Positions 38,629 to 55,348 of a stretch of DNA of 64,000 bases are shown here, piece after piece. The notes beneath the pieces were generated by a model. That model was not told where the DNA came from. It made no database searches and saw nothing but the letters and a program-made list of their open reading frames with translations. The translations under genes and the position numbers were made by a program. The DNA is from a virus. The stretch lies in IMG/VR virus record IMGVR_UViG_3300050015_000702. The stretch is one strand, 5' to 3'. Position 1 is the first letter of the stretch. Every line of letters starts with the position of its first letter.

Positions 38629-38666
38629 GATAGATTTCAAAATATGAGCAAGTAAAGTTTTTCTAT

Positions 38667-38675
38667 GAATATATA
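38667..38675 (+). promoter_or_regulatory. putative late promoter of the GIY-YIG gene
   Basis: GAATATATA 12 nt upstream of ATG 38688. Confidence 0.65.
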
Positions 38676-38687
38676 AATAAAAAATTC

Positions 38688-39338
38688 ATGGAAAAACTTT
38701 TTAATTTTGTTTATGTTACAACTAATTTAATAAATGGAATGAAGTATGTTGGCGAATATTCTACCAACGATATAAATTCATATGAATCCAGGACTTATCT
38801 AGGGAGTGGAAGACCATATTTTAAAAATGCTCTTAAATTTTATGGTAGAAATAATTTTTATAGGGAAATATTAGAATCTTTTCCTACAAAACAAGAAGCT
38901 TTTAATGCTCAAGAAAAATACATTATTCAATTCGATACTTTAAAACCCAATGGATATAATTTAAATCCAAAGGGGGGCAATCAATGTAAAAATACAGGGC
39001 CATGGTTAAATAAGAATTTATCCGAAAAGCATAAAGAAAATATTTCTAAATCCCTTATCGGAAAAAATACATGGAGTAAGGGATGCCATCAATCAAAAGA
39101 AACAAAAAATTTAATAAGTTTATCAGAAATGGGTAAAGAGATTTCGGATCAGACAAAATTATTAATGTCATTAGCATCCGAGGGGAAACCTAAATCGGAA
39201 GATCATGCGAAAAAATGCAGAATAGCTAGATTAGGAAAAACAGTTCCAAAAATATTTTGTAAATATTGTCAAAGAGATTACGCCAATTATATGTATACTC
39301 TTTATCATGGAGAAAAATGTAAAAAGAAGAATATATAA
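38688..39338 (+). mobile_element. free-standing GIY-YIG homing endonuclease
   Basis: FVYVTTNLINGMKYVG, YLGSG, PNGYN, SE.HK..IS repeats, CKYC...HGEKCK. Confidence 0.85.
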
Positions 39339-39350
39339 AATAAATCGAAT

Positions 39351-41144
39351 ATGACAAATATCAGTAAATACGTTCAACTTAATGACTTCCTCTTATTAGA
39401 GTATGAATTTAATAAGGATCAGTTTAATGTTACCCCATTAACTAACATTGGTTCTCTTTGCATTTCGACAAACATTGGAAGCTTCCAATATATTAATACG
39501 GGTGCTGATAGAGCTGTAACAAATAACGACTTTGGTTTAAACTCTCTTCCCGAAAATCCATCAAGAACTACTTGGTATTGTTATCCTCCGGATATTTCTA
39601 CAAATTATTCCAATTACTTTGCCCATTGCGATAGTTCGACTTTGGTTAACGTTCCTTCTTATGCTTTGGATACCATTAAGGTTCATATTATTTCAGGGTA
39701 TAACTTTGATGATGTTGCTGGGTTCTTACTTCAAATTAGAGCAAAAAACACAGGAGGAAACTTTGTTGACCTTGCAAACTTTACCTGGATCAATCAGATT
39801 CTTGAAGCTGGAAGTAATGTTATTAATTTTTCTACAAATGCTTTATATTTAGCAAATAGATTTTATGACAAATATGTTCAGTTTAGGATTCCTTCTATTC
39901 AAGTTCTTGGAGGGGATACTGTTACTCCGCTTGGTCTAGCTTTAAATATTAAACAGCTATCTGATGTTTTCATCACATATAGTACTATTCCTAATATTAA
40001 TGTTGACACGTATCTTATTCAGGAGCAAATTTCAGTTCAACTTCCTGTAACAAGTGTTGCAGATAATTTCAATTGCTTTATTGCTGAATCAACTGGTGGG
40101 GACTATATCGAATTCTATGCTACTTGGAACCAAATAATTATTGGGGAGTACATGGGAGACATTGAAAGCGGAAAAATCCGTTTATTCACTTCTAACAACC
40201 CCAATGATAATGCAATGGATTTTGCCGATACTTATGGTGCCGGAGCAGTGAAATGGGTAATTATGCATGAATTAGAAGTTTACGAATTAATTCCAGGAGG
40301 AACAACACTTCTAACTCAGAAGTATGTATTTACTCAGGAAGATAACTTTATGAATGCTAACTTCTTCCGTCCGGTTCTTAGGAATGCCGATATTGATTCA
40401 GCTTATCAAATAGATTATACTTGCCGATTAGTTAACCGAATGGACGGAACCCAGGTTATCAGAAAAGCTTCTTTCGCTTCAACAGATCCTAAAAAATATG
40501 GTTTGCAGTTTGATCGTTTAAATGTTGACAATTATATTCCTTACAAAGTTTTTAATAGAATTGAAGGGGAAGCTTTTGTTCAAAACATTACATCGGGAAC
40601 CCAACAATCCAAATTTGTCAAAGTATTTTACGATACAACGACTGTAGGTATGAATATGAATAATGAAATTCTTCCCCAGGGAACAGGTCCTTTATTCTTA
40701 AAAAGAGGAGATGGCGCTTATCTATTCCATTTTCAAAAAATCGATACAGCAAATGGGGATCAAGTTAATAATGTGGATCTTTCGGGAGCTTATAATTACG
40801 GTCTTTTGTTTATCATGGATGATCAGTCAAAGTTGGAAATATCCCCAACCTACAGCACCAATATGAATACTGTACTTGGACAACTTGAATTCAAAATTAT
40901 GGAAGGACAAGTTTCGAAACTTTTACAGCAAACAAATAACGCTTACTCGATTGTAGTTAAAAATCCGGATGGATCCCAATACACTTTCTATGAAGGAGTA
41001 TTCTTTAGCTATAGTAATATGGATCAGGTAATCACTCAATTTAATAATCTGGTGAATGTATCTGCTCTAAATACCCAAATAGCTTCATTACAAGAACAAG
41101 TTAAAACCTTAACTGATCAAAATACAGCTCTCAAAGCTAAGTAG
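39351..41144 (+). CDS. structural protein (baseplate/tail-associated), C-terminal coiled coil
   Basis: 597 aa; own late-promoter motif at 39329-39337. Confidence 0.5.
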   Translation: MTNISKYVQLNDFLLLEYEFNKDQFNVTPLTNIGSLCISTNIGSFQYINTGADRAVTNNDFGLNSLPENPSRTTWYCYPPDISTNYSNYFAHCDSSTLVNVPSYALDTIKVHIISGYNFDDVAGFLLQIRAKNTGGNFVDLANFTWINQILEAGSNVINFSTNALYLANRFYDKYVQFRIPSIQVLGGDTVTPLGLALNIKQLSDVFITYSTIPNINVDTYLIQEQISVQLPVTSVADNFNCFIAESTGGDYIEFYATWNQIIIGEYMGDIESGKIRLFTSNNPNDNAMDFADTYGAGAVKWVIMHELEVYELIPGGTTLLTQKYVFTQEDNFMNANFFRPVLRNADIDSAYQIDYTCRLVNRMDGTQVIRKASFASTDPKKYGLQFDRLNVDNYIPYKVFNRIEGEAFVQNITSGTQQSKFVKVFYDTTTVGMNMNNEILPQGTGPLFLKRGDGAYLFHFQKIDTANGDQVNNVDLSGAYNYGLLFIMDDQSKLEISPTYSTNMNTVLGQLEFKIMEGQVSKLLQQTNNAYSIVVKNPDGSQYTFYEGVFFSYSNMDQVITQFNNLVNVSALNTQIASLQEQVKTLTDQNTALKAK

Positions 41145-41157
41145 GCATAAAGACTTA

Positions 41158-41190
41158 AAGTACGACGTTAATCTTCAAGTACGACGTTAA
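41158..41190. repeat. 14-bp direct repeat AAGTACGACGTTAA x2 (19-bp period)
   Basis: Exact copies at 41158-41171 and 41177-41190. Confidence 0.85.
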
Positions 41191-41197
41191 CTTTCAC

Positions 41198-41228
41198 AAA
41201 AAACCTTCTAATTTCTTAGAAGGTTTTT
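41198..41228. terminator. bidirectional intrinsic terminator between convergent operons
   Basis: AAAAACCTTCTAA-TTTC-TTAGAAGGTTTTT. Confidence 0.85.
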
Positions 41229-41340
41229 GCTGGAGGTTGGTCCAAACATATGCTAGGGCATTTGTATTTCCCTTTAATAGTTACACTAAGCTTTTAAATA
41301 AAAATTGAGCAGCGAGCTCCTAACGCGGCCTAGCGTGAAG

Positions 41341-41859
41341 TTAAAATAGGCCCTTGATGGCTGCGAATAAATGCTGAATAATATCATATTTCAACACTAT
41401 CCAAGAAAGACCAGCAACTAAAATTCCTCTGGTAATAACATACTGAAGATTCAGTCTATCAAAGGCAAATCTATAGATTGCTCCATAAGTTAAAGTTGGT
41501 TCGTCTTCGTCATCAAAGAACTGATTAAATTCGGGAATTATGTTACCAGCAAATCCTAATTCTTCATCAAGATACTGGTGAACAGGAGCAAGAAGCTCCA
41601 TAAGTCGAAGTCGCTTAATATTCTCGGGCAAATTATAATCGGATTCAGGAAGAGATACAGGAGTATAAAGAACATAAAAATAATTATAGTCTATTTTATA
41701 CTTGTTCAATTTAGACTGAGGATTAGCTGCTTCCGCTTTAATTGTACGAATCCAGCTACGATAATTCTCAATGTCCCTCCAAACCCTAACAAAGGGGATT
41801 TTGGTCCATAAAGGCTGATGTCTAGCCTTCTTTTTAGTCATTCTCTGATTCTTCATCAT
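41341..41859 (-). CDS. hypothetical protein with C-terminal TM
   Basis: 172-aa ORF coupled to the sigma gene. Confidence 0.55.
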   Translation of the reverse strand: MMKNQRMTKKKARHQPLWTKIPFVRVWRDIENYRSWIRTIKAEAANPQSKLNKYKIDYNYFYVLYTPVSLPESDYNLPENIKRLRLMELLAPVHQYLDEELGFAGNIIPEFNQFFDDEDEPTLTYGAIYRFAFDRLNLQYVITRGILVAGLSWIVLKYDIIQHLFAAIKGLF

Positions 41860-42466
41860 AATATGCTTCGATAAGGTCTGGATGCCTTTCTTTTAATGTG
41901 TCAGCGACATCCTTTCTGGCTTTTCTTAATCTGGTTTTAACGGTATTAAGGTTCCAGTTAAGATCGGCTGCAATATCTTGCAGTCTTTTATTGTTAATCT
42001 CTCTTTCGAAGATAACAGTTCTATAAGGTTCTTCTAAGTTATCAATTGCTTCAATAACTTTATTATACAAGTTAGTCTTGAGTTCTTCACCGCTAGGTCC
42101 TATTACTTCGAGGTTAATTGAAACCATCGGAGTATAAAATTTAAGAACTTTTGAATGATTCTCATCAAGTCTTTCTCTGGAGACAGTTTTTGAACGAGAT
42201 CTAAGTTGTCCGAGGGCTTCATTTTTTGCTATCGCATAAACCCAAGTTGAGAAGTTAAAATCTCTGTTATACTGGTCCATTTTCTCCCATACAGCTATAA
42301 AAGTCTTGGAAACGACTTCTTTTGCTAAATCAGAATCCTTTACGTAACGATATACGAAAGAGTTTAGTCCGGGTTTTATCCTGTTAATAAGATATGTGAA
42401 TGTTTTGTTGTCTTTTTGTTCCAAAAAATCTATTGCTAGATTTTGAATTGAGATTTCTTTGTCCAT
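41834..42466 (-). CDS. ECF-type sigma-70 factor
   Basis: Region 2 (LAKEVVSKTFIAVW...Y..DFNFSTWVYAIAKN) and region 4 (LEEPYR...DIA..L....NTVKTRLRKAR); start set at MDKEIS. Confidence 0.9.
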   Translation of the reverse strand: MDKEISIQNLAIDFLEQKDNKTFTYLINRIKPGLNSFVYRYVKDSDLAKEVVSKTFIAVWEKMDQYNRDFNFSTWVYAIAKNEALGQLRSRSKTVSRERLDENHSKVLKFYTPMVSINLEVIGPSGEELKTNLYNKVIEAIDNLEEPYRTVIFEREINNKRLQDIAADLNWNLNTVKTRLRKARKDVADTLKERHPDLIEAYYDEESEND

Positions 42467-42467
42467 A

Positions 42468-43163
42468 TTAAGTATAGTGTCCATTAATAAATTTTTTACC
42501 TTTATTCCATGGGGTTGTTCCCCTTTTGGATTCACTCATATGAGTTTTAGCCTCCTTTGACTTCGGCTTTCTCATATGTTTTTTATGTTCTTCAGTTTTT
42601 GGTTTTCTCATTAATTCTTTGGTTTCTTCTGATAAAGAAACCCCATTACGAGAATTAAATAATGCTAACTTATGTTCCTCTGTTAATTCTTTTCCCCATC
42701 GATGATTTTTTTCACCCATGTGAGCATTGCTCATTTGCTGCCTTGTTTTTTCCGATGGGTGCTTTCCCCAGCTAGGATTTTTTTCTCCTTTTTTTGAATA
42801 AGCTATTTTTTCTTTTGTTTTTTCTGATCGGGTATAATGACATCCGCCTGTATGAAATCCTCTGTTTTTATTTGGCAGAAATCGATTATATCCATTTGGG
42901 GATAGGGTATTGTATTTTAAAATGTAATGGGTTTCCCCATCTAACAGATCCTCTACATTTTTATAATTATCTTGAAGTATCTGTTTTTTGAAATTTTCAA
43001 TACCATATATTTCATAATCTAGATCAAGATATTTAGAAGACCCCATATACCCATCTGTATTGGGGTCTTCTTTATAACATATTCGACTACCTACATATTG
43101 TTTATTCAAAACCAAATTGGTTATTAAATAAACATAGTAAAATCGAGGAGTTCTTAAAGACAT
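42468..43163 (-). mobile_element. free-standing GIY-YIG homing endonuclease
   Basis: YYVYLITN...KQYVGSR, YMGSS, PNGYN, multiple SE.TK NUMOD3 repeats. Confidence 0.85.
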
Positions 43164-43219
43164 ATAGTTTATTCTATATATCCAATTGAAATCTCTTTTT
43201 TTTGCGATAGTGAGGAATC

Positions 43220-43558
43220 TTATTCCTCAACTATCTGCTCAACATACTGATTGATGTTCTGAAGGATTCCGGCAACGACCTGATATGGGAAATTCCCAAG
43301 GACGTTTACAATCTGCTGGAATGTGTTGTGGTCAACAACATCTACCTGAATTGCATTCATGATACCTGCAATCTGGTTAAATGGGTACTGACCAATAGCT
43401 TTAAGAATAGCGGCTTTAAATTCAGGTTTGAGACGATAAGTGGGCACATACGGTGCAGTCTCGATTTTCTGATTTGGATCTACAGCTGCTTTTGGTGCTT
43501 CTGCTGTTTTTGCTTCTGGTATTAACTGAGCTTCAGTTGGTTGTGTGTTTTCTTCCAT
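43220..43558 (-). CDS. hypothetical protein with an internal duplicated (Y/F)P(F/Y)NQ/QV helix motif
   Basis: 112-aa ORF behind promoter 43588-43596. Confidence 0.55.
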   Translation of the reverse strand: MEENTQPTEAQLIPEAKTAEAPKAAVDPNQKIETAPYVPTYRLKPEFKAAILKAIGQYPFNQIAGIMNAIQVDVVDHNTFQQIVNVLGNFPYQVVAGILQNINQYVEQIVEE

Positions 43559-43668
43559 GACTTAATTGGTTTAAATAATTATTTTTTTATATATTCACTG
43601 GTTTGTAAGATTCTTATCAATATAATGTAAAAATTGCGTTCTGATTTGTCAAAATTGTCAGATTTCGG

Positions 43669-43932
43669 TTAATTTTTTACATATCCATCATTAGTATAGA
43701 TTTCAATGAATCTTTTTAGATCGGGTTCAATGACCATTGATTCATGAACAATCTCTCCCGATTTGGTCTTATACTGAACTAGAGTAATAAGATAGCCATC
43801 CGGCGGTTCAGGATAAAATGCTACTGTCAACGGGGATTTTGGTTTACTCATTACCAGCATGCATTCTCTATTTTTGAATAGAGAAATATTCTCTGGAGCT
43901 TTTTTTGCGGGAACGTAAGGTTTATATGCCAT
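43669..43932 (-). CDS. hypothetical protein
   Basis: Tightly packed ORF in operon. Confidence 0.5.
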   Translation of the reverse strand: MAYKPYVPAKKAPENISLFKNRECMLVMSKPKSPLTVAFYPEPPDGYLITLVQYKTKSGEIVHESMVIEPDLKRFIEIYTNDGYVKN

Positions 43933-43934
43933 TT

Positions 43935-44348
43935 TTATTCTTTTACTGCGTGATATTTAGCGTATCGAGCTATAAAATCCTTAGTGGATTCTCTAGGGAC
44001 ATCTATGTCGTGTTCATCTACTTTATCTGCAATTTGATTAATAACTTTTGCCTGAGATTCCATCCACTCTAAAACTACATCTTCATTTTTTGGAGTTATA
44101 GCTAAGGGATCTATGGGTCTTGTTAGATGACAATGTCTGCAAAATTCTTCGCTCTTATCCAATTCATTGACATAAGTGTTTGGATCAATCCATTCATGTT
44201 CACAATTTGCTTGTTGAAGCAAAGGTTCGAGCATATCACGAATACGATATTTTGTATTGTAATCGAGAGATAGTAAAAAACTATCTACTTTTTTCTGAGA
44301 TTGAGTTACTTCTTCGGGGGATAGGATTCTCATAAAATTAGCATTCAT
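43935..44348 (-). CDS. hypothetical protein with CxH...CxxC Zn motif
   Basis: CEHEW...CRHC. Confidence 0.5.
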   Translation of the reverse strand: MNANFMRILSPEEVTQSQKKVDSFLLSLDYNTKYRIRDMLEPLLQQANCEHEWIDPNTYVNELDKSEEFCRHCHLTRPIDPLAITPKNEDVVLEWMESQAKVINQIADKVDEHDIDVPRESTKDFIARYAKYHAVKE

Positions 44349-45082
44349 TATTCAGGTTTATTAAGTAAAAGAGGTCTGTCAAATAAAATATAATCAATAA
44401 GAGGCTGATATGAGTCAAAAAGCTCTTCAGGGGTAAAAACTATCCATTCATTAGTTGGGCCAACAGGAATTGCACATTTAATAATTTTGCAATTGAGAGC
44501 TTCCGACATTGAATCAATATAGTTAAAGTTTACTCTTTTTTGAAATTCAAAATCAGCTTCATGAATATCTTGTTTACCTTGAAGATAACTTCTGTCTTCG
44601 CCTTCTCGATTAGCTGTAATTCTCTTTTGAGAAACTTCCGAAGGGACATCAAAAAATATATTTAAATCGGGATACGGTAGATTTAAGAAATCAAATTCAA
44701 AATCTAATATCCATTTTTTTATATTAAAGGACTCTACAGATCCGGTAGGATATTTAGCTGCTTGATAAGCTACATTAGAATAAACATATCGATCCAAAAG
44801 AACAACATCATTTTCATCTAATGCTTCCTGAAGTTCCGGCTTAAACATAAATCTGTCCATTCCATAGATATTGGCTACAAAATAAGGTGAAACCTCATCA
44901 ATGCCACCGAATTCTCCACGAAGAAATTTAGCAATTACATTACTAAATTCATTGTGTTCATACATTGGAAAGTGAAAGAAGGCAAACTTGAGACCTTTGT
45001 CTTCGAAATATTTTTTTATAAGTTTTACTTGCGTACTTTTACCTGCACCATCTGCGCCCTCTATACAAATTAATTTACCCAT
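44348..45082 (-). CDS. tmk: thymidylate kinase
   Basis: IEGADGAGKST P-loop, LLDRYVYSNVAYQ, PDLNIFFDV, DIHE. Confidence 0.92.
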   Translation of the reverse strand: MGKLICIEGADGAGKSTQVKLIKKYFEDKGLKFAFFHFPMYEHNEFSNVIAKFLRGEFGGIDEVSPYFVANIYGMDRFMFKPELQEALDENDVVLLDRYVYSNVAYQAAKYPTGSVESFNIKKWILDFEFDFLNLPYPDLNIFFDVPSEVSQKRITANREGEDRSYLQGKQDIHEADFEFQKRVNFNYIDSMSEALNCKIIKCAIPVGPTNEWIVFTPEELFDSYQPLIDYILFDRPLLLNKPE

Positions 45083-45963
45083 ATATTGAATTTTTCTTTA
45101 TATCTTTCTGTGAATTGAAGACATTTATTATCAACTAATCTTTTTATGTCTAAATATGACAAAAGTTTTGAGGAATAGGTTAATTTATAAATGAATCCAT
45201 TTTTCTTACAAAATTCCATAGCAGCTTCTTTTTTTAATTGAACGATTTTGGATTTGTGTAATTTTTTTGGTTTTATTTCAACTAGATATTTTTCATTTAT
45301 AATAAAATCCGCAACATAAGTACGCTTTTCTTTATTAAATCCAATATATGGAATTTTTAGTTCCTTTTTTTCAGCACTTTCCCATTTAAACCCAAATCTT
45401 TCAATAGCATTTATCATATATGAAAGTTCGTGTAAACTTCGAAAATACCATCCTTTATACCATCCGGACCATCCATTACCCGAACCTATTGGTGATGGTT
45501 TTCCATACATTGGATTATTTTCTCCTGAAGAATGAATGGATATTTTGTCTTTTATTTTTTGGGATTTTTCTTTTCCATATCTTTTATCAAAAGATAAACC
45601 TTTCCCATCAATAGCATATTGAATTATTCCAGAGCATTGATTGTTTCTTCCATACATAGGGTTGTCCGAACCAGATAAAGAAACGGATATATTATTTCGT
45701 ATTTTATTTCCCTTCTCATTCCCAAATATTTCTTCATATGTTTTTCCTTGAGTTCTTTTTATGGATGATTTCCCCGCATTAATGTATTGTTTTTGACGTC
45801 GGCAGGACAAACATAAATCTATACCATATTTTTCTTTACCTTCTGCATAAGTATAATATCTAGGAAAAATATGATCTAAATGACATTGATCACAATTAAT
45901 AATTACTTTTTGACGAATAATTGGAAATCCCGTTTTGTTCAATTTAATAGTAGATAATATCAT
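45070..45963 (-). mobile_element. free-standing PD-(D/E)xK (TnsA-like) endonuclease with Zn finger and NUMOD-like repeats
   Basis: FRSLHE...YVADF...LVEIKP; G.NNPMYG repeats; start 45963 behind promoter 45969-45977. Confidence 0.8.
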
Positions 45964-46019
45964 ATAACTATATATCCGGAAAATAATTCCGGATATGTCG
46001 GTTCCTTCAAAAACAGGGA

Positions 46020-46361
46020 TCAATTGAAAAGTTTTGAGTTCTTAATAAGATTAAGAACTTCATATACCATAACGCCAACTCCGAGGATTCCCCAGAATTT
46101 CCATTGTGTAGAAAATATAGCTTTTAAGCCTACGCCGAATAGCATAGACATTCCTAGAGTTTCGATTGTATTCAATAGACTACCAACAAAAACCATGCCC
46201 GGACGAGGTTGATACTCAATTTCTTGAGTTAAAGTTTCGTCAATCTTTGGTTCCTCTTTTTTAAAATATACCTCCTCAATGGGTGGTGTAGGAATTGCCG
46301 CCCCCTCCTTAACCGCATTGAGTCTATTTGCTAATGCGTCGTCCTTGATCATTTTATCCAT
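46020..46361 (-). CDS. hypothetical membrane protein
   Basis: Two hydrophobic segments at the C-terminus. Confidence 0.55.
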   Translation of the reverse strand: MDKMIKDDALANRLNAVKEGAAIPTPPIEEVYFKKEEPKIDETLTQEIEYQPRPGMVFVGSLLNTIETLGMSMLFGVGLKAIFSTQWKFWGILGVGVMVYEVLNLIKNSKLFN

Positions 46362-46649
46362 TTAAATTAATTCAGCAATGTAGTGTGCATCATTATGTCC
46401 ATCGGGTCTTACTAAGAAAGTAGCCGTCTCATCTTCTTCTACTTTACCAACGAAAAAGGTTTTGCTAAGAGAAAAATCATTTCCCCAATCGCTCAACATA
46501 TCCTCGTAAAGTGGGAAAGTAACAACTGGTAATAAGTTTAAAATGGATTCAAGCATTGGGTTAACCTCGATATGCTTGATATAATTGAGTTCGTTCAATG
46601 CAGGTTTGCTACTCATAGGAAGATTTGAAAGGTATTTAATACCATCCAT
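46362..46649 (-). CDS. hypothetical protein
   Basis: Abuts the downstream ORF. Confidence 0.45.
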   Translation of the reverse strand: MDGIKYLSNLPMSSKPALNELNYIKHIEVNPMLESILNLLPVVTFPLYEDMLSDWGNDFSLSKTFFVGKVEEDETATFLVRPDGHNDAHYIAELI

Positions 46650-46669
46650 ATTTAAAGTAGCACTTTCAT

Positions 46670-47329
46670 TTACAGACTCTTTAAGTTTTTTTTGAATTTG
46701 TCTTCCTTTTTGAAGTCATTTCCTTTTCCGGCAGCAGGTTTAAATCCTTTTTTAGCTTTTGCTTCCATCTTATCTTCTTCTTCGTCTTCGTCTCCTTTTT
46801 CATTAACCTCAACATCAGTTACAACAGCAGGCTCTTTCTTTCCAAATTTCTTTTTTGGAGCTTCTGATTCGCCATTTTTATCTGGTGCTGTATCAATTGG
46901 TCCTTTTCCTGGCTTTGCTGCAGATCCTTGAGCAACAGAGCCACCATCAGTTCCGGGTTCTACTTTAGAACCTTTGCCTTCATTGTCACCGGTTTTAACA
47001 TCGCCAAACATACCTGGTTTGAAATCTTTAACAGATTTAAGATCGGTCTGAAGATCATATCCTGGGGTGAATTTGGATCCCCCCATTTTCATTTCGACTT
47101 TTACTTCAGTCTTACCTTTGACGTACTCTTTCTTGAGCCATCCGAATACTTTTTTATTCTCTTCTGGTATAATAAGACCTTCGCCTGGTCCACCTGCAGC
47201 TTTTGTTACAGGAGCACCTTTACCGCCTTTTTCCTTAGCACCTTTTTCAGAAGTTTCTTGTTCTTTTGCTTCTGCAGCTTCGGTAAGTCTTTCGATATAG
47301 TCATTAAAGTTAAAAGATCCAGCTTTCAT
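46670..47329 (-). CDS. low-complexity K/E/G-rich protein, probable head-internal
   Basis: FNDYIERLTE leader; late promoter 47347-47355. Confidence 0.55.
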   Translation of the reverse strand: MKAGSFNFNDYIERLTEAAEAKEQETSEKGAKEKGGKGAPVTKAAGGPGEGLIIPEENKKVFGWLKKEYVKGKTEVKVEMKMGGSKFTPGYDLQTDLKSVKDFKPGMFGDVKTGDNEGKGSKVEPGTDGGSVAQGSAAKPGKGPIDTAPDKNGESEAPKKKFGKKEPAVVTDVEVNEKGDEDEEEDKMEAKAKKGFKPAAGKGNDFKKEDKFKKNLKSL

Positions 47330-47364
47330 ATGTTATGGTTTTATTTTATATATCCGCGTTAAAA

Positions 47365-47637
47365 TTAATTGTTCATCTCTCTATTTATCCAAATCTGCAT
47401 TTCGTTCCAATCAGGATTATCCCAATGATATGATTCAACATCGTTATTCCTTGCAATGTTATTTCCAAGTTCTTCATCGGAATCTTTGGGTTCCCATACA
47501 ATTTCGGAAACATGTTCAAAATTATTGGAATAGTAAGTATCCTGCAATATTTTGTTGTCTAAAATCTGTCGACCAACGCCCATTGTTCTAATAGGATCTC
47601 CGCTTCTTTCGAAATTTATTTTTTCGGATACTATCAT
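47365..47637 (-). CDS. small FERG-module protein
   Basis: MIVSEKINFERSGDPIRTMGVGRQILDNKI, similar to module 1 of 9101..10273. Confidence 0.6.
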   Translation of the reverse strand: MIVSEKINFERSGDPIRTMGVGRQILDNKILQDTYYSNNFEHVSEIVWEPKDSDEELGNNIARNNDVESYHWDNPDWNEMQIWINREMNN

Positions 47638-48872
47638 TTTATTCTTCTATCATTTCTTTCAATATCATTCACGATATTTTTATATCTGTAAATATGTTTT
47701 CCGATGAATCCTTTTACTTCACCAGAAACCCCTTCTTCCTCCCAAATTTCCTTTTTAATTTCTTCCAAATCCTCTAAAGCTTCCTTTAAAGGTTTACGAA
47801 TTTTATCACACCATTTTGGATCAATTAAATTATCTCTTTTAAAATTAACTGTATAAGGGCTAAAGTCTTTCATGAATGCCCATCCAATTCTAAAAGGACC
47901 CTCCTTTTTAGTTTGAAAATTAGGATCCCCTTCTCCATCTATAGTCCAGAAACACGAAGCAACACCGCCCCAATGATCAGCTAATCTGTAAATAGCTTTA
48001 TCTGAAATCCAGTATTGGCTTCCGCCGCGGCTCTTAAAATTAGTTCCTTTGTCAGATAAAGTGCTCCATAGATGATGTATGTTTTCAAAATGACTTGTGA
48101 GATGAATTTCTTTATAATCTGCCTGAGTTGAAATATGAAAATTATTTCGGGTAACCTCTTTTACAACCGAACGAAAGGGAACCATTGGAACAGGATTAAT
48201 TTTATTATCTATAGGATCTGTTATTTTCCTAAGTTGTTTCATAATAACTTGATCCGATGATAAAGATTTAGAAACAGGTTTTTCTTTTAAAGAAACAAAA
48301 ATAGTTTCATCTAAATCTGGAACCCCATCATTTTGAATTTCTAGCCCCATCGAATTTACCAGAGGTTTATATTTAGGCCAAGTTGTAACTAATTCATGGA
48401 ATCCATCAAAAAGTCTATCACTTGTGATAATATCTTGTCCAACATTCATAAATCCGGGATCTATTAGTAAGTTTGAATTCTCAATAACTTTTAAAAAATC
48501 AATTACAAGGGGTTTAAATCTATTTTCCCCAATACCCAATTTATCTAGTGGGGTTCCCTCTCGTTCGAAATGCTGTTTTTCCGTTAAGGAAACATCTTTA
48601 TGTTTAAATGCTGCTCCAAGATCTGTTTTAAGGGAAGGAACATAGTGATAATCAGGATTTTGTTCTTTGATATACTTCATTAGTTTGGATCCATATCCCA
48701 ATCTTCTAAATTCAGGACGAACAAAGATATGACTTATGGAGAGTTCATCTTCAAATAAAACATATTGAACTAGGCCGACAATCTCATCATTAGCATAAAC
48801 CCCCGCTTCACAATTAGTTTGGCCTGAGTATGAATCGACAACTTCATTTGTATAAGTAATCTTCTTATCCAT
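47634..48872 (-). CDS. GNAT acetyltransferase domain fused to an internal FERG module and an unknown domain
   Basis: ISHIFVRPEFRRLGYGSKLM acetyl-CoA motif A; LTEKQHFEREGTPLDKLGIG. Confidence 0.7.
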   Translation of the reverse strand: MDKKITYTNEVVDSYSGQTNCEAGVYANDEIVGLVQYVLFEDELSISHIFVRPEFRRLGYGSKLMKYIKEQNPDYHYVPSLKTDLGAAFKHKDVSLTEKQHFEREGTPLDKLGIGENRFKPLVIDFLKVIENSNLLIDPGFMNVGQDIITSDRLFDGFHELVTTWPKYKPLVNSMGLEIQNDGVPDLDETIFVSLKEKPVSKSLSSDQVIMKQLRKITDPIDNKINPVPMVPFRSVVKEVTRNNFHISTQADYKEIHLTSHFENIHHLWSTLSDKGTNFKSRGGSQYWISDKAIYRLADHWGGVASCFWTIDGEGDPNFQTKKEGPFRIGWAFMKDFSPYTVNFKRDNLIDPKWCDKIRKPLKEALEDLEEIKKEIWEEEGVSGEVKGFIGKHIYRYKNIVNDIERNDRRIK

Positions 48873-48889
48873 TTCTTTATTTATCCCAC

Positions 48890-48916
48890 AAAAAAACCCA
48901 CACTTTCGCTGTGGGT
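48890..48916 (-). terminator. intrinsic terminator ending the tmRNA coding piece
   Basis: ACCCACAGCGAAAGTGTGGGT followed by a U-run. Confidence 0.8.
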
Positions 48917-49182
48917 AAGTCTCGTGAAAAATGGTGCTTCTTAAGCTGCCATTCTCATTTCGTTAACAGTTTCGCCGTTTACTTGCGTTACTGGAATAAT
49001 CGTTATCTCCCTCAATATGCAGTCAAAGCCAGGTCAGCCCCGATTTGTGCGGATCGAAAATAAGTTTGTCTAAACTCACCGCACTTAGTTTAAGATAATC
49101 GGCAATCGATTGTGGAGCTGCCGCGAATCGAACGCGGGTGTTGCATATCTACTCTATAATTAGCTCTTTCGAGCACTCCCAA
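48890..49182 (-). ncRNA. ssrA: circularly permuted (two-piece) tmRNA
   Basis: Acceptor piece (T-arm CCGCG-TTCGATT-CGCGG, CAGCTCCA, ends 49113) precedes coding piece (GGGGCTGACCTGGCTTTGAC from 49041); G3.U70 pair; TGCATAT/ATATGCA helix; tag 48976-48941 = GETVNEMRMAA* with the stop in a hairpin loop. Confidence 0.9.
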
Positions 49183-49907
49183 TATCTTTTTCCTATTTTA
49201 ATAATAGGACTTGTATCTTCAAAAAATAATTTTTCAATTTGATTAAAATCAATAAATTCCCTTTCATCTATTCTAATTAATCTGTATCCATTCTCGATAC
49301 ACCACTCTTCAAGCAATTTATCTTTGAATCGTTTTGTTTCTAATTGATGATGTATATCCTTAAAATGCCAAATACCATCATATTCAAAACAAATTTTTAA
49401 AATATCCGAATATAAATCCCTTCCTATCCCCGTTTCCTTATATCTTAAATTCCCTCCTGATTTCCAATTATATTGAGGATAATGAGCTTTAAAATATTTA
49501 ACAATTTCCCTTTCTTTTGATGAAGAAAATTTTATATTTGTACTCTGTTTTTGTTGATAAGTTTCGGTATAATATATTCCATTTTTCCAGGCTTCTTTTA
49601 TAGCATTGCTGCTTCGAATTTTTCCTTCTTCTGTATGAATTATTTTTGTATTAGCACAGGATTTACAACAAAATCTCCTTTTAATACCTCCTTTTCGATA
49701 TTTGATGTGAATTATATTATTGCATAATTCTGCTTCACATTTAATATCCTCTTCTATATATTTTCCGAATCTTTTTTCGTTCGTTTTTAAGGCTTCTTTT
49801 GAAAGTTTTTCACCTAATTTTGAATTATCTCTATGCTGCCATCTTACATGATTTGCCTTCGCTTGAAAGGTTCCAAATTCTTCTTTACATTCTCCGCAGA
49901 CATACAT
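49149..49907 (-). mobile_element. free-standing Zn-finger + Vsr/DUF559-like endonuclease
   Basis: C2H2 finger, FCCKSC, RDLY...ICFEYDGIWH...D......GYRLIRI; 3' end overlaps the tmRNA. Confidence 0.8.
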
Positions 49908-49965
49908 AGTTTTATTCTATATATCCGTATGGAGCTGGTAAGTTTCGAACTCTACCGTTAAAGTT

Positions 49966-50370
49966 TTAATACTGGCTTCTTTGCAGTGGTTCAAAATACC
50001 ATTCCCATTTATCTAAAGTTCCCCAAGTATGAAAATTAGAAGGTGATTTTCCATTACTCAATTGAACAATAGCTGTTCCATTTTGCAGCTCTTTTGCATG
50101 TTCTAAACTCCCCGCTCTTTCTAAATGCATTCCTATAGGATTCGACATAATAACATTATAAGCCCAGAAGTAAGTATCTGCTGGATAATGATCTCCAAGA
50201 ACATAATCGGGTCCTATTTCTCCATTAATCTTTTTAACACTAAAATCTATTTTAGACTTAATTATATCCCCAGACTTAACACTAGCCATGGTTTTTAAGC
50301 CAATATCTAGAGCTTTATAGGGTTCCTGATGTTGTTTAAATATTTTTTCGTTTACAAATTCAGCTTTCAT
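49966..50370 (-). CDS. FERG-variant module protein
   Basis: FVNEKIFKQHQEPYKALDIG then ..KSGDII, homologous to the modules in the upstream gene. Confidence 0.6.
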   Translation of the reverse strand: MKAEFVNEKIFKQHQEPYKALDIGLKTMASVKSGDIIKSKIDFSVKKINGEIGPDYVLGDHYPADTYFWAYNVIMSNPIGMHLERAGSLEHAKELQNGTAIVQLSNGKSPSNFHTWGTLDKWEWYFEPLQRSQY

Positions 50371-50372
50371 GC

Positions 50373-51215
50373 TTATGTAGTTTCATATTCTTCATCATAT
50401 TCACTTGGCTGAATGATCTTAAACCATTCATTCCATGCTTCAATAGGTTTAACAGACCAACAAGTTCTTATATTTGGGAGAATTCCTTCTTTTACTTCAT
50501 TTGAAATATTCCAGGCACGTCTAAATACAGAGCCGCTTTGATACAAAGTAATGGACCAATCGTCATCTATTTTTGAGGATTCTTTAACTATAAAATATCT
50601 TCCTGGATTGTCATCATCGGTCATATCTTCATTATCTGAAAAATATAATCTCTGATCTGTTGAGGAAGCTCTATAAACTCTTTTTATATTTCTTATTATA
50701 TCTCCGGGTTTTAATTTCTCCCAAGTAGTAATACCGATGTCCAATTTCTTAAGTGGACTTCCACCGCGATCAAAAGCTAATGATTCTCTCAAATTTTTAG
50801 GACTAACTACTTTAAAAAATTCCATCCATACACTAGGACTTTTTATTCCAGTTACTGTAGCAAATATTTTTCCAAAATCGGGATTTTTTTGAATCTTTTC
50901 TGCTGTTTCTTCAATATCTTTATCCAAATTTTCCATTCCTATTAATTCAATAGACAATTTGTTATCTTGAAGAATCGCATCTCTCTTGAGTATTCCAAAA
51001 TCTCCAACTCTCCAATAATACCCAAAGCTCCTATTTTCGGGAGTATAAAAAATTAGGTCTTCTTTTTCACTTACCCAAGCTTCTTTAATACACCTAAGAA
51101 CATCACCCCTTTTAAGATCATCAAAGCCACGCATACCAACATCCATTCTACGTAAAGGTTTTCCTCCACGTTCAAAATGTTGTTGTATCGCTTCTCTAAT
51201 TAAAAGTGCTTTCAT
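50373..51215 (-). CDS. two-module FERG protein
   Basis: IREAIQQHFERGGKPLRRMDVG and LRESLAFDRGGSPLKKLDIG, each followed by LK.GD(V/I). Confidence 0.65.
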   Translation of the reverse strand: MKALLIREAIQQHFERGGKPLRRMDVGMRGFDDLKRGDVLRCIKEAWVSEKEDLIFYTPENRSFGYYWRVGDFGILKRDAILQDNKLSIELIGMENLDKDIEETAEKIQKNPDFGKIFATVTGIKSPSVWMEFFKVVSPKNLRESLAFDRGGSPLKKLDIGITTWEKLKPGDIIRNIKRVYRASSTDQRLYFSDNEDMTDDDNPGRYFIVKESSKIDDDWSITLYQSGSVFRRAWNISNEVKEGILPNIRTCWSVKPIEAWNEWFKIIQPSEYDEEYETT

Positions 51216-51218
51216 CCG

Positions 51219-51226
51219 CAAATATA
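51219..51226 (-). promoter_or_regulatory. Bacteroidota-type -7 box TAnnTTTG (TATATTTG)
   Basis: 3 nt upstream of ATG 51215. Confidence 0.6.
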
Positions 51227-51227
51227 C

Positions 51228-51268
51228 AAAAAATTCCTGATATAGAATATCTATTCAGGAATTTTTTT
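51228..51268. terminator. inverted repeat / intrinsic terminator
   Basis: AAAAATTCCTGA...TCAGGAATTTTT with A/T tails on both sides. Confidence 0.7.
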
Positions 51269-51284
51269 CAAGGTATTTTTTAAT

Positions 51285-51539
51285 TTAGGCAATCGGAGGG
51301 GTTATGGTTTTTTGAGGGAATAGTTTTTCCAAACCAAATAGTTTCCAAAAAATGTAGTAAACTAGAAGACAAAATAACCAAAGACCTACGATAGTCTGAA
51401 CAAATGGCTTTGCATCCAAAGCATTATAACCAATGAATACAACAAGTATATTCACAATCTGCATCCAACTCTTTTTGAGCCAAGGTAGAGCAGTTTTTAC
51501 AGCCCATGCCTTAATTTTTTCAATCAATTTTTTCCACAT
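51285..51539 (-). CDS. small two-TM membrane protein (holin-like candidate)
   Basis: Basic N-terminus, two hydrophobic helices. Confidence 0.5.
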   Translation of the reverse strand: MWKKLIEKIKAWAVKTALPWLKKSWMQIVNILVVFIGYNALDAKPFVQTIVGLWLFCLLVYYIFWKLFGLEKLFPQKTITPPIA

Positions 51540-51544
51540 AATTT

Positions 51545-51658
51545 TTATTTATTTAATTTTTTCTCTGGTAATGCCAGGGTAACGATAATAGCACCTATGA
51601 TCAATAATATTGGCCATATTTGCTGTGCAACTTCTCCCAACTGTTTTAAAAGTTCCAT
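51545..51658 (-). CDS. 37-aa single-TM peptide (not in ORF track)
   Basis: MELLKQLGEVAQQIWPILLIIGAIIVTLALPEKKLNK fills the gap between two co-oriented genes. Confidence 0.55.
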   Translation of the reverse strand: MELLKQLGEVAQQIWPILLIIGAIIVTLALPEKKLNK

Positions 51659-51673
51659 AGTATTGATTTTTAA

Positions 51674-51949
51674 TTAAAGTATCTCTTGTGTAACTAATAT
51701 TCCATCATCTGTAAGAGGTTCTCCGTCCCATCTATCCCCTTCTCCAATCTCTTCAATTATTTGTCCGATTAATTCAGCTTGTTCTTCGTCATCGGCTTGT
51801 ATAACCATAAAATTAGAATAAGCATCAAATTTAAAATGAATTTTATTCTTTCTTAATTCGGGAATAATAGTTTGAAGCATATCCAAACCATTGGCCATGG
51901 TATAATATCCAAAACCGTTTCCTTCTAAACTTTCTTTCACTAATTTCAT
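51674..51949 (-). CDS. small acidic protein with LVKES leader
   Basis: MKLVKESLE; directly downstream of the portal. Confidence 0.55.
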   Translation of the reverse strand: MKLVKESLEGNGFGYYTMANGLDMLQTIIPELRKNKIHFKFDAYSNFMVIQADDEEQAELIGQIIEEIGEGDRWDGEPLTDDGILVTQEIL

Positions 51950-51953
51950 ATTG

Positions 51954-53780
51954 TTATACTCCTAATTCTTCTTCACCCCCTGCTGCTGGTTCTTCTGCTC
52001 CGCCTTCACCACCAAGTTCTCCACCACCGCCTAAGTCTCCAAGTCCCCCACCAAGTTCTCCACCGCCGCCTAAGCCGCCGCCACCTTCACCGCCGAAACC
52101 ACCTCCGCCGCCAAGTTCTCCACCGCCACCTTCACCACCAGGCTGTTGACCTGTTGCTGCGTTGAGACGTGCATAAGCTTGAGCAAGTTTACGAACTTCT
52201 TCTTCTCTTTCTTTCTTATATTTAGCGTTGAGCTTAATATCTGCTTCTGTAAATTCCATGAACTTCTCAACCAAAAATTTAGGGTCAAAATAGTTCTTTT
52301 CTCCTGGAGTTCCATCTGGATTAACAGTAGGTTCTTTAATTCCAGCAATACTTGTAATTGTAGCGGATCCCTTTTCTGCAAGAGATCTTTCTTTCATTTT
52401 CTTGAATAAGTTTTCTTCAATGAAATCAAGACCAACAGATCCCTGAAGTACTCTGTCTTCTTTAAATTCTGGATGTTTTAAAAGGAATTGAATCCAAAGA
52501 GGTTTAAGAAGGATTTCCTGGAAAGTAGAACGAATTCTAATAATGAAATTAGAAAATCTCATTTCCTCTCTAGCAACACCTTCACCGCCATCACCCCAAC
52601 TTCCGCCATTACCGCCTTCTGAAGATTCAGCGGAATTATTAAATCGGGAACTAGGTACTTTGGTTTCGATAATGAATCTCTGCCAGAAATATTTAAGAGA
52701 TTCTGTATTAGATAAGTCGTATCCTTGTGGTTGGAATCCATCGATTTCTGTCTGAGCTCCATCACGGGTAGGAATAACGAATGTCTTGGCGAAATTGAAC
52801 TGAGCGGAACCATTGTAGGTTACTTCTCCGGATTCATCCGAGATGTTTAACTCTTCCTTGTACATACCACGTAATTCTGATAGTCTTGTACGAGCTTTAG
52901 CATCTGATTGGGATCCAATCGGAACTAAGATTTTAACCCTCATCTGAGCGTTCCAAACGTTCCAAATAATACGTGAGTTTTCAAGTGTTCTCATCATGTT
53001 AAATGAACGAACTAATCTCTCAACATATGAAAGTCTTCCAATAAAGTTACCTCGTGCCCAGGATATGTAAATAAGGTTAGAGTCAACTAATTCTCTTTGT
53101 TTTCTTGCATCACCACGATACTGAATCCAAACACGATATTCCTCGCCATCATTATTAATACGAACTTCTGGTTCAAGTGATATTGGGTCAAGTTCCTTTA
53201 GAGCAATAATGTTCTTAGCATTCTCTTCGCCTTCACCATCATAAATGATTTCAAATGCGAGGAATCCATCAATAAGGAATTTCTTTAAATAATGCCAGCC
53301 ATCGTGACCCTGATTGAATTTGAAAGCAAAATAGATTTTTCTGAAGCATTCATTTAAATCTTCTACAATTTCTTTTGCTTTATCTTGTTTTAAGACAGAT
53401 TTAAGGTTCTTTGTTGCTGGGTAAGCAAAATAGTTCTGATCGTCATAGATGATCGTTTCGTCTGCAATAATTTCAATAACGTTTTCTATTTCACCATTCA
53501 TTGCAAACTTACGAAGGAAGTCTCTACGTGTAGGATATTCCTTATCATAGAATGCGATAAATTCTTTTTGACCATAGTCAGTGCCAGCATAGTTTCCCTG
53601 GTAGTAGAGTCCATACATGGAATCTAACTGAGCTTCAGCTATACCAACGGACTTAGACTGTTTTATAACTTTTTCGTCCCATTTCATGCCCAGGGAACTC
53701 AAATTGCGTATATTTCTCTGAAGTTGTCCGACAAGACCCATTCGTCTGCCGTCCACATTTTTCATTGTGAATCCAGCCAT
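51954..53780 (-). CDS. portal protein, T4 gp20-like, Gly/Glu-rich tail
   Basis: KKFLIDG, ELDP, SYVERLVRSFN.MR.LE.SRIIW, YF......TKVP.SRF, REE.RF..FI.R.R..F. Confidence 0.9.
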   Translation of the reverse strand: MAGFTMKNVDGRRMGLVGQLQRNIRNLSSLGMKWDEKVIKQSKSVGIAEAQLDSMYGLYYQGNYAGTDYGQKEFIAFYDKEYPTRRDFLRKFAMNGEIENVIEIIADETIIYDDQNYFAYPATKNLKSVLKQDKAKEIVEDLNECFRKIYFAFKFNQGHDGWHYLKKFLIDGFLAFEIIYDGEGEENAKNIIALKELDPISLEPEVRINNDGEEYRVWIQYRGDARKQRELVDSNLIYISWARGNFIGRLSYVERLVRSFNMMRTLENSRIIWNVWNAQMRVKILVPIGSQSDAKARTRLSELRGMYKEELNISDESGEVTYNGSAQFNFAKTFVIPTRDGAQTEIDGFQPQGYDLSNTESLKYFWQRFIIETKVPSSRFNNSAESSEGGNGGSWGDGGEGVAREEMRFSNFIIRIRSTFQEILLKPLWIQFLLKHPEFKEDRVLQGSVGLDFIEENLFKKMKERSLAEKGSATITSIAGIKEPTVNPDGTPGEKNYFDPKFLVEKFMEFTEADIKLNAKYKKEREEEVRKLAQAYARLNAATGQQPGGEGGGGELGGGGGFGGEGGGGLGGGGELGGGLGDLGGGGELGGEGGAEEPAAGGEEELGV

Positions 53781-53796
53781 AGTTGTTTTCTTTTAT

Positions 53797-54594
53797 TTAT
53801 ATATTCTCTTTACATTTATCCCCATGCCATCTATTATAATTCCCAGGATCCATCATTTTATGACAATGGGGACATTCTTTTTTGTCATATATTTGACCCA
53901 TTCTGCCTTTGCTGATATTTTTGCATGTGGTTTCGCTAGCTTTTTTGCCGACTCGAGTTTTGCTCATTTTATCTTTCATTAATGAAAGTTTTTTATCAGC
54001 TTCTTCTTTACCAAATTTTTCTTCCCATATCTCAAAAACAGTTTTTTGAAACATTGGATTTTCTTCTCCAACTCTTTCACTAGCACGTTTACTCATTTTT
54101 TCAATGGTCTCTTTAGAAAATATTCCGGTTTTCCCTTTACACCAACAATTCTGCCCAATATGAGATTTGCTTATATTTTGACAATGCTCATTTGTAAATT
54201 TCCTTCCACTTAATCCTTTACTAATGTTCGTTTTCCATTCTGCTGTTCGAGGAACTTTACTGAATGATTCTCGAAATTTATCGATGGATGCTTTTGTCCT
54301 TCTTCCTGGTATTTCTCCATTTCCCCCATTTGGATGAATGTTATACCCAATCGGAATAAGTGTTTTATATTTTATTATATTGGGTTCTTCGAGTTTTCTA
54401 GCTTCATGTAAGGTTTCGCATTTCTGTAATATTTCCTTTTTAAAAGATTCCTTACCATATTTCTTTATGGATCTTCTAATTAAATTACCACTGCCTAAAT
54501 ATCCATCGTCTATATTATTGGTAGTATGAGCTCCGACATATTGTTTTCCATTGACGATATTAGTTGTTAAATAAACATAGTGAATATTTCCCAT
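53797..54594 (-). mobile_element. free-standing GIY-YIG homing endonuclease
   Basis: YVYLTTNIVNGKQYVG, YLGSG, GYNI, NUMOD-like repeats, CPHC...WHGDKCK. Confidence 0.85.
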
Positions 54595-54643
54595 AAATCC
54601 CTTTTATTTATATATTCGGAATTTATCCCACTTAATTGCTTAT

Positions 54644-55348
54644 TTAAGTTTTGTCTCCTATTGATACGATTCCTTTTGAACCCAGGTCATAAATCTTATA
54701 TAATTGAGCCTGATTCATCTTTCGGAATGCATTTTTAGGTTCATAAAATGGTATAAATTTCCATTCTGAATATTCCACCATTCTGAATTTGGTTACTTTT
54801 GGGAAAGAATATTTTCTATAAGCGAAATTAAAATTGGCGGCATTCTTACTATTGAATAATTTGATCATTGTCTGACCCCCGCCGCTCTTCATGTAATCTA
54901 CAAATCGTTTATTTATGGCTTCCTTATTATTCTCTGTAAGATTTTCTACCTTGTCAAAAAAGTCTTTAAAAGTAAGAAAGAATGAATCCAAAAATTTAAG
55001 ACGAACATCTGGAGGAAGTAAATTTAGATTGATACCGGAAAATGTTCCTCTGTCCTGATTCATACAAAAAGTTAAGGGAACAAAGTCTGTATATTCCTTG
55101 TTTCCTTTTTGTAATTCAATTAGAACATTTGGGCCTTGGTAAATGAAAGTATAAACAAATCCGGGAATAGGATACCCGCCATTCTTAGAACCAATAACAC
55201 TTTCCTGATCCGTTGAATCGATTTCAGTGAGTTTAGCATCCCCTTTTAGATTTTGGACAATATATTTTTCGAATAAGATTGAGTATGCCTGGTCAGAGAT
55301 TCCATTGACCCTTTGCATAATCTTATATTCATCGGCAGGAGCTAACAT
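54644..55348 (-). CDS. DNA end protector, T4 gp2-like
   Basis: G.VYTF.Y...D..PL.F......F.GINL..LPP..R..FL; FA.RKY. Confidence 0.7.
   Translation of the reverse strand: MLAPADEYKIMQRVNGISDQAYSILFEKYIVQNLKGDAKLTEIDSTDQESVIGSKNGGYPIPGFVYTFIYQGPNVLIELQKGNKEYTDFVPLTFCMNQDRGTFSGINLNLLPPDVRLKFLDSFFLTFKDFFDKVENLTENNKEAINKRFVDYMKSGGGQTMIKLFNSKNAANFNFAYRKYSFPKVTKFRMVEYSEWKFIPFYEPKNAFRKMNQAQLYKIYDLGSKGIVSIGDKT

Follow-up and report, generated by a model that had tools for sequence, protein, structure and literature searches.

Endonuclease genes and upstream sequence pieces

The 64,000-nucleotide (nt) stretch of viral DNA analyzed here (IMG/VR record IMGVR_UViG_3300050015_000702; hereafter the window) comes from a T4-like phage whose G+C content is about 34%. 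Its genes include those for a gp20-type portal, a gp2-like end protector, the phage's own sigma factor, and a permuted transfer-messenger RNA (tmRNA). Near-identical DNA is present in peat metagenome runs, and a megablast search of positions 38000–56000 against deposited phages returned zero matches. The region between 38 and 55 kb contains five free-standing endonuclease genes, E1–E5 (E4 encodes only a probable nuclease), each located behind a copy of the late-promoter-like motif GRATATATARAATAAA, for which a motif scan found 12 occurrences in the window. Upstream of each of these five promoter motifs lies a short non-coding piece (mimics 1–5) that a first-pass annotation had singled out for its resemblance to a site in the next gene. 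The five downstream partners are, in order, a gene of no known family (D1), a sigma factor gene (D2), the thymidylate kinase gene tmk, a permuted tmRNA gene, and a T4-type portal gene. Comparisons with relatives suggest, with a probability of roughly 0.7, that the mimics are insertion relics, namely displaced native 5' ends of the downstream genes. The features concerned are as follows.

38634–38665, + strand: putative relic 1, a decayed copy of D1 codons ~4–15
38667–38682, + strand: E1 late-promoter-like motif (motif scan)
38688–39338, + strand: E1, GIY-YIG/NUMOD3 homing endonuclease (Pfam, PHROG)
39351–41144, + strand: D1, protein of 597 amino acids (aa), no known family; relic 1 has its counterpart in the first ~15 codons
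41834–42466, − strand: D2, sigma-70-family factor (domain match)
42468–43163, − strand: E2, GIY-YIG/NUMOD3 homing endonuclease (Pfam, PHROG)
43168–43183, − strand: E2 late-promoter-like motif (motif scan)
43184–43205, − strand: putative relic 2, a decayed sigma-factor start region plus codons 1–8; abuts the E2 promoter
44348–45082, − strand: tmk, thymidylate kinase, the resident endonuclease-linked allele (domain match)
45070–45963, − strand: E3, TnsA-like PD-(D/E)xK + NUMOD3 endonuclease; its 3' end overlaps the tmk start
45972–45996, − strand: inverted repeat, perfect over 10 bp around a 5-nt spacer; reaches from the end of relic 3 into the first E3 promoter bases
45988–46014, − strand: putative relic 3, decayed tmk codons ~6–14, from the P-loop to the Gly before Lys
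48941–49170, − strand: tmRNA gene, circularly permuted, two-piece (ARAGORN; Rfam RF04321)
49149–49907, − strand: E4, probable zinc-finger + DUF559-like nuclease (weak PHROG match; atlas neighbors)
49928–49955, − strand: putative relic 4, a bulged T-arm and acceptor 3' strand (CAGCTCCA) of the tmRNA acceptor piece
51954–53780, − strand: portal gene, T4 gp20 type (Pfam PF07230)
53691–54640, − strand: E5 block, comprising the mimic 5 region, E5 with its promoter, and the portal promoter with portal nt 1–90
53797–54594, − strand: E5, GIY-YIG/NUMOD3 (Pfam, PHROG)
54616–54643, − strand: mimic 5 region; resembles the portal gene no more than expected by chance

The five sequence pairs all occur at the positions given in the first-pass annotation, and at all five genes GRATATATARAATAAA lies 0–12 nt downstream of the mimic. 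The nucleases at the five mimics comprise three GIY-YIG proteins, one TnsA-like PD-(D/E)xK protein, and one probable DUF559-like protein; two unrelated folds, GIY-YIG and TnsA-like PD-(D/E)xK, are indeed involved. E1, E2, and E5 are Seg-like, each combining GIY-YIG with a NUMOD-type module in its own open reading frame (ORF) between genes (Pfam PF01541 and/or PF19835 with PF07460, plus phrog_314). E4 is graded as a probable nuclease because its assignment comes from a weak PHROG match and from its neighbors in a protein atlas, which are viral DUF559 and C2H2 zinc-finger proteins. Searches for E4 in Pfam and among the sequences of solved structures found nothing significant, and a pattern scan of viral contigs found no relatives of it.

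Similarity of the mimics to resident and foreign alleles

Relatives of the window (L-numbered loci) were taken from IMG/VR and metagenomes, and an allele set for each downstream gene was formed from its first 150 nt and the 30 nt upstream (180 nt). Similarity to the resident genes taken by themselves is weak. DNA identities to the resident gene are, as listed, 12/21, 13/15, 12/27, and 12/18, and the nucleotide scores fall within the range of dinucleotide shuffles, the best being pair 2 (weakly, p ~ 0.06). Peptide scores have p values of 0.12–0.30 against the whole gene and, as listed, of 0.01, 0.16, 0.04, and 0.04 against its first 50 codons. For E2 and E3, peptide matches other than the annotated ones score equally high or higher in this resident-gene test, and the top match for E3 differs from the annotated pair. 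Ungapped and gapped local alignments of the upstream regions with the resident genes did not lead to a decision. A chance resemblance in AT-rich non-coding DNA, picked by eye, would explain these resident-only results.

Comparisons with foreign alleles, however, are difficult to reconcile with chance. Mimic 1 scores 13.0 against foreign alleles (0/200 shuffles ungapped, 0/100 gapped) and 7.5 against the resident one; mimic 2 scores 14.5 (0/200 shuffles ungapped, p = 0.02 gapped) and 10, respectively; and mimic 3, which includes a 13-nt exact match, scores 13.0 (p = 0.01–0.02) and 6.5. In a control matrix that sets the 40 nt upstream of 11 promoter motifs (five belonging to endonuclease genes, six not) against six allele sets, the cells that combine mimics 1–3 with their own downstream genes are the top three of 66. 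Mimics 1–3 outscore shuffled sequences, genes other than their partners, and promoters of genes that do not encode endonucleases. Pair 4 has 17 of 25 bases identical in register, first in the T-loop and then in the eight-base acceptor strand; its shuffle p value is 0.0085, and 52 of 3120 natural 41-mers of the window (1.7%) score as well. Mimic 5 scores 9.5 against foreign alleles and 7.5 against the resident allele, and because its p value against foreign alleles is 0.4–0.5, the default reading of pair 5 is chance. A Fisher combination of the five tests gives p = 2e-5, with the tests picked after the data had been seen.

In sum, pairs 1–4 are more than chance, and pair 5 is indistinguishable from it. 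The annotated resemblance between mimic and downstream gene thus stands for four pairs out of five. The shuffle test proposed in the first-pass annotation separates weak resident-only matches and pair 5 from pairs 1–3, each of which reaches p <= 0.02 against foreign alleles. The annotation had also predicted that a mimic should be closer to foreign alleles than to the resident one. By score, this outer copy is indeed nearer to the alleles of relatives than the inner copy is in pairs 1–3, but not in pair 4, which shares the resident acceptor strand. As other phages replicate the pattern independently (see below), chance is a highly unlikely explanation of the set as a whole.

Origin of the mimics and competing explanations

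An endonuclease gene located between two copies of a gene terminus was found for pairs 1–4 of the window and at L012, L021, L059, L093, L099, L139, and L160. At L010 and L012, a GIY-YIG gene upstream of the portal gene has ahead of it the native portal promoter with the initial 15 nt of the portal gene, both identical to those of endonuclease-less relatives, and the functional portal gene has a different promoter and altered first codons (the L012 piece scores 24, with 0/100 shuffles). At L021, the last ~25 codons of a gp2-like gene are present on both sides of the endonuclease gene, and the duplication is on the 3' side. At L059:310-960, L090, and L012:8700-9330, the tmRNA terminator is interrupted by a GIY-YIG gene (166 aa) with a copy of the terminator hairpin on either side; the hairpin copies in L059 are identical at 31 of 34 bases. 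The outer copy is collinear with the displaced gene in full, start codon included, at L093, L099, L139, L160, and L012. Endonuclease-less relatives lack the mimics at the corresponding junctions, which look ordinary, and ancestral intergenic DNA is therefore rejected as their source. At the same-site endonuclease genes of L014, L040, and L089, a mimic either is not discernible or would not fit, and systematic scoring found significant relics in some cassettes only.

Within the window, the copies that read as relics are 22–32 nt long, with the upstream gene's stop codon on one side and the endonuclease promoter on the other. Relic 1 follows the stop of the gene at 37798–38628. Its gapped alignment with the L040 allele of D1 spans 38634–38665 (score 13.5, 0/100 shuffles), and its Ser codon is TCA, as in most foreign alleles, where the resident gene has AGT. 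The resident D1 is 73% identical to that of L082 over codons 2–11 and 97% identical over the following 30 nt. Relic 2 is identical to the L038 allele at 19 of 22 bases, with the start-codon region included. The stop of E2 is 1 nt ahead of the sigma-factor start codon, and the first four codons of D2 diverge from its closest relatives, with 90% identity from codon 5 onward. Relic 2 spans the start-codon region to codon 8 and ends at the promoter edge, where the resident D2 switches from divergent to 90% identical.

Relic 3 has a 13-nt exact match to the tmk allele of L050/L051, and its peptide shares seven of nine residues with the L007-type allele versus four of nine with the resident allele. 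Orthologs of E3 (48–54% identity) are located upstream of tmk in L039, L093, L020, L046, and L133. All five of these loci carry a homologous relic directly before the promoter, ending before the P-loop Lys codon. The relic of L093 begins one base after the upstream stop, retains the tmk start codon, and runs for 12 codons. More distant E3 relatives adjoin other, non-orthologous P-loop genes and have long relics of those genes' own starts. At L099, the relic includes a start codon and 17 codons, matches the functional copy at 44 of 59 bases, and has a largely unchanged peptide; long gene-start relics similar to this one are present at L139, L160, and L185. Across L093, L099, L139, and L160, the relics contain the start codon and 11–18 codons. 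The apparent recoding of the mimics is thus best read as two alleles that diverged under protein-level selection and are now adjacent, since a relic and a resident gene with such a history would look recoded relative to each other.

These patterns fit an alternative that the first-pass annotation had itself listed, scars of insertion into the 5' end of a gene, better than the reading it preferred, because relatives retain full gene starts. Each mobile cassette would carry an endonuclease gene behind a late promoter of its own, together with a 5' end that replaces that of the gene downstream. On first entry, the cassette would land in the 5' portion of its target gene, close to or at the nuclease cut site, pushing the native gene start upstream, where it would lose its function. 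The whole block, relic included, would then spread by ordinary homing, with the relic being trimmed and mutated over time. For D1 and the portal gene, the replacement would include the gene's promoter, placed inside the last codons of the endonuclease gene. A promoter motif of D1 at 39329–39344 on the + strand (39331 in the motif scan) indeed sits in the last codons of E1, and one of the portal gene at 53791–53806 on the − strand sits in those of E5, which implies that each of the two nuclease ORFs runs through its downstream neighbor's promoter. We infer cutting at the junction, an illegitimate first insertion, and a donor origin of the resident 5' ends.

Several observations weigh against such an origin. 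The window relics lack the native promoter and first codons and start 2–9 nt after the upstream stop; relics 1, 3, and 4 are 5'-truncated, and relic 2 is the only one that reaches the start region. Because the 5' part was lost each time, a plain scar needs an extra deletion in every case. Moreover, the promoter-proximal part of the relic always survives, which functional retention would also explain. Relic 4 resembles foreign alleles no more closely than it does the resident one, and mimic 5 is not established as a relic, its pair not being significant.

The tmRNA locus illustrates the first of these two cases. The resident gene is detected by ARAGORN as a permuted tmRNA with a tag peptide and scores 49.8 bits against RF04321 (cut-off 47); in all four relatives searched, a permuted tmRNA also exceeds this cut-off. 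Relic 4 begins directly after the stop of the gene at 49966–50370. Its T-arm has one bulge and is followed by an acceptor strand identical to that of the resident tmRNA, which is phage-specific in having G where relatives have C or T. The shared window-specific acceptor implies that relic 4 came from the tmRNA of this lineage itself or from a compatible allele. E4 extends with its last codons into the 5' end of the tmRNA gene (49149–49203, − strand). The sole E4 ortholog, in L089, is frameshifted and has a hairpin in place of the T-arm copy. In the closest relative (L090:1724-1774), only the last 17 codons of E4 are left before the tmRNA, at 94% identity, a sign that the E4 gene was probably lost there by deletion.

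At the portal locus, a naturally occurring variant is informative. A 978-nt contig of run X6 joins positions 53690 and 54641, lacking the 950-nt E5 block of the window and having 112 other letters instead. It has 0 differences from the window over 473 nt on the portal side (53218–53690) and seven over 393 nt on the side of the upstream gene (54641–55033). The variant therefore differs from the window in portal nt 1–90 (codons 1–30) and is identical from nt 91, and the 53690 boundary is the first base of the portal site named in the first-pass annotation. This difference would fit a replaced 5' end of the portal gene; at D1 and D2, the switches in identity are short. The 112 letters fit a normal junction of ~25 nt followed by the first 90 nt of an unalignable portal allele, and the presence or absence of E5 fits homing with co-conversion up to a break that would lie near 53690. 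Since the E5-less variant differs across the whole block, the mimic 5 region is not ancestral intergenic DNA. A scan of viral contigs with exact 40-mers, aimed at the 112 letters, found zero matches, and a protein search with the portal N-terminus for the E5-less allele found nothing above 85% identity.

The first-pass annotation had favored a regulatory role, in which each mimic is kept as an autorepression operator: the nuclease would bind the upstream target copy and thereby shut off the late promoter of its gene, in the manner of I-TevI. The mimics of pairs 1–4, but not of pair 5, resemble the target region (the cleavage sites are presumed), and the pieces lie within 0–12 nt of a promoter motif. 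In all window cases, as well as in the six tmk-linked E3 cassettes, it is the end of the relic nearest the promoter that has survived, and a relic could have been co-opted. At E3, the 10-bp inverted repeat joins the relic to the promoter and is the only element that reaches into a promoter motif; it may form a hairpin in read-through RNA or serve as a protein site. L039 has a weaker form of this repeat. Apart from this repeat, however, there is no overlap with the promoter, as the pieces end 0–12 nt upstream of the motif and lie beside rather than over it. In relatives, they run 30–60 nt back to where the displaced gene has its start codon or promoter. Duplications are also present where there is no promoter to control (the 3' side in L021 and the terminator in L059), and none accompanies the same-site endonucleases of L014, L040, and L089.

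Selective retention together with the nuclease gene is likewise not apparent. The relics of the E3 set have ~59% pairwise identity, compared with ~50% at third codon positions and 62–71% at first and second positions of the endonuclease genes, which is no clear signal in either direction and no excess conservation. For mimic 2, a variant contig that is ~97% identical to the window (43123–43599) has three of its 13 substitutions in the 15-nt core, against 0.4 expected (Poisson p = 0.008), at a depth of ~4. Further changes are present elsewhere in the spacer of the same contig, and none is listed for the 16-nt E2 promoter motif; such variant contigs come from other peat samples at low depth, and the listing of substitutions is not exhaustive. 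The 3/15 changed positions make the mimic a substitution hot spot rather than a conserved site. Given the full gene starts in relatives, the duplications without promoters, the same-site absences, and this hot spot, the claim of kept operators is not supported, and we regard it as quite unlikely.

The relic could instead aid homing. As homology that ends at the break, it would allow the left DNA end to prime copying without long resection, acting like the upstream exon of an intron-borne endonuclease. The survival of the break-proximal part is compatible with this idea, as is the finding that the six tmk-linked cassettes share a 3' boundary before the Lys codon of GK[ST] and vary in their 5' extent. 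In addition, the L133 relic equals a different tmk allele type (that of L060) at 11 of 12 bases, as if refreshed from the recipient, and a similar idea has been proposed for gene fragments in the endonuclease islands of ICP1 (PMC10055350). However, 15–30 nt at 60–85% identity is a poor recombination substrate, and the E5-less variant has its exchange points beyond the mimic, one at the upstream stop codon and the other at portal nt 90/91. Several cassettes have no relic, and no clear excess conservation is seen. A role as homing aid is thus unlikely.

Beyond the tmk-linked cassettes, the E3 family has a marked association with P-loop genes. A Walker-A motif is present within −60 to +130 nt of the stop in 23 of 65 distinct E3-family 3' ends, compared with 58 of 5000 random windows (1.2%), a ~30-fold excess (binomial p ~ 4e-28). 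The genes downstream of the family (in the window and in loci L092–L209) include tmk and several non-orthologous kinase-like proteins. Judging from these neighborhoods, the E3 family appears to be specialized on P-loop coding DNA at gene starts, and the pattern suggests that each jump may have exchanged the recipient protein's first strand and P-loop. A literature search found no paper describing an E3-type nuclease family specialized on P-loops, and a metagenome scan for close E3 relatives found none above 53% identity. A combined scenario is possible, although we consider it doubtful: the break-side part of the relic would be kept, as a homology arm or as a decoy or operator, and the E3 family would hop between unrelated P-loop kinase genes through cleavage of Walker-A coding DNA, bringing its own N-terminal strand and P-loop and producing chimeric kinases.

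The Thr codon of the tmk P-loop was considered as a marker of sensitive alleles and rejected; it is present in none of eight endonuclease-linked and six of 23 endonuclease-less alleles (Fisher p = 0.30). A joint between 44937 and 46018 in a contig of run X4, from a would-be E3-less relative, has 28 letters on one side, which is too weak, and was not used. In L034, a close relative, an ORF that by eye and from its translation resembles S-adenosylhomocysteine hydrolase (L034:1125-2530) lies between a U3 homolog and tmk, in the position occupied by E3 in the window.

Known systems, target regions, and other features

In mechanism, the closest match to an insertion-relic origin of the mimics is probably the fungal mitochondrial mobile ORF (mORF). 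These elements insert with a foreign gene end, which is fused to the gene, and the native relic left behind is closer to the sequences of relatives (PMC3630166). The known cases (atp6 in Allomyces; atp6, atp9, cox2, and nad3 in Glomus) likewise have an endonuclease gene between two copies of a gene terminus. There are also differences: the phage cassettes duplicate the 5' end of the gene and the fungal elements the 3' end (L021 mirrors the fungal case), and the phage endonuclease genes have their own late promoters instead of being fused in frame. Furthermore, the relics described here are far shorter, the elements reside in a T4-like phage, and a tmRNA gene is among the targets.

Edgell and co-workers reportedly described an autorepression operator of I-TevI in phage T4 in 2004. 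The window shares with that system a target-like sequence at the late promoter of a nuclease gene. The I-TevI operator overlaps the promoter, lies in the intron, and is bound by the protein, which represses (PMC2988022). The pieces in the window, in comparison, lie beside the promoter, are collinear with the start of a displaced gene, are absent at some same-site endonucleases, and show no conservation. In ICP1, fragments of essential genes adjoin homing endonuclease genes and have been suggested to be recombination substrates (Barth et al., 2023; PMC10055350). The likeness consists of small fragments beside endonuclease genes that are homologous to neighboring full-length essential genes. The nuclease families and phage lineage differ, however, and the fragments described here are tied to 5' ends, to foreign alleles, and to the boundary of a promoter-bearing cassette.

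Two further comparisons can be drawn. The free-standing GIY-YIG genes between conserved genes resemble the Seg and Mob endonucleases, and the variant with and without E5 fits such a system, although the classical cases leave no duplicated piece of the target. In the intronless homing of T4, these enzymes cut the neighboring gene of a naive phage, and flanking markers are co-converted. Pair 4 is reminiscent of integrase-borne tRNA and tmRNA islands in that a duplicate of the T-arm and acceptor 3' part flanks the insert. However, there are no integrase or att sites here, the inserted DNA amounts to one nuclease gene, and the tmRNA is of the permuted type.

If the relics mark the point of cassette entry, then the likely target of an uncharacterized homing endonuclease can be read by genome comparison. 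The claim that target regions can be read from the genome is thus a part of the first-pass annotation that is upheld, since the mimics of the four real pairs point to the target region of each nuclease. The likely targets are D1 codons ~4–15 for E1, sigma factor codons 1–8 for E2, the Walker-A codons of tmk for E3, and the acceptor end of the permuted tmRNA for E4. For E5, the likely target is ~nt 90 of the portal gene, as judged from the natural variant and not from a relic. The data also indicate that these cassettes probably rewrite the first 5–30 codons of essential phage genes. They also call for caution, in that a target-like sequence beside a nuclease promoter is by itself no evidence of an operator.

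Some minor features of the loci are as follows. The proteins encoded by E1 and E5 share a similar Cys-Lys-rich C-terminal tail. A joint between 39838 and 42803 in run X5 is unexplained and possibly chimeric. The tmRNA terminator of the window (48873–48940) has no endonuclease gene, unlike those of L059, L090, and L012. In a contig of run X4, position 51663 is followed by 16 other letters and then by 51954, so that window positions 51664–51953 are missing; the contig thus represents a natural variant without the 91-aa ORF at 51674–51949, which lies immediately downstream of the portal gene. Three ORFs of exactly 412 aa in the analysis are mutually unrelated. Finally, two further GIY-YIG/NUMOD3 genes, at 24166–24801 (+ strand) and 55342–55923 (− strand), have no promoter motif of their own and are packed directly against the upstream gene, bringing the number of endonuclease-like genes to seven in 64 kb.

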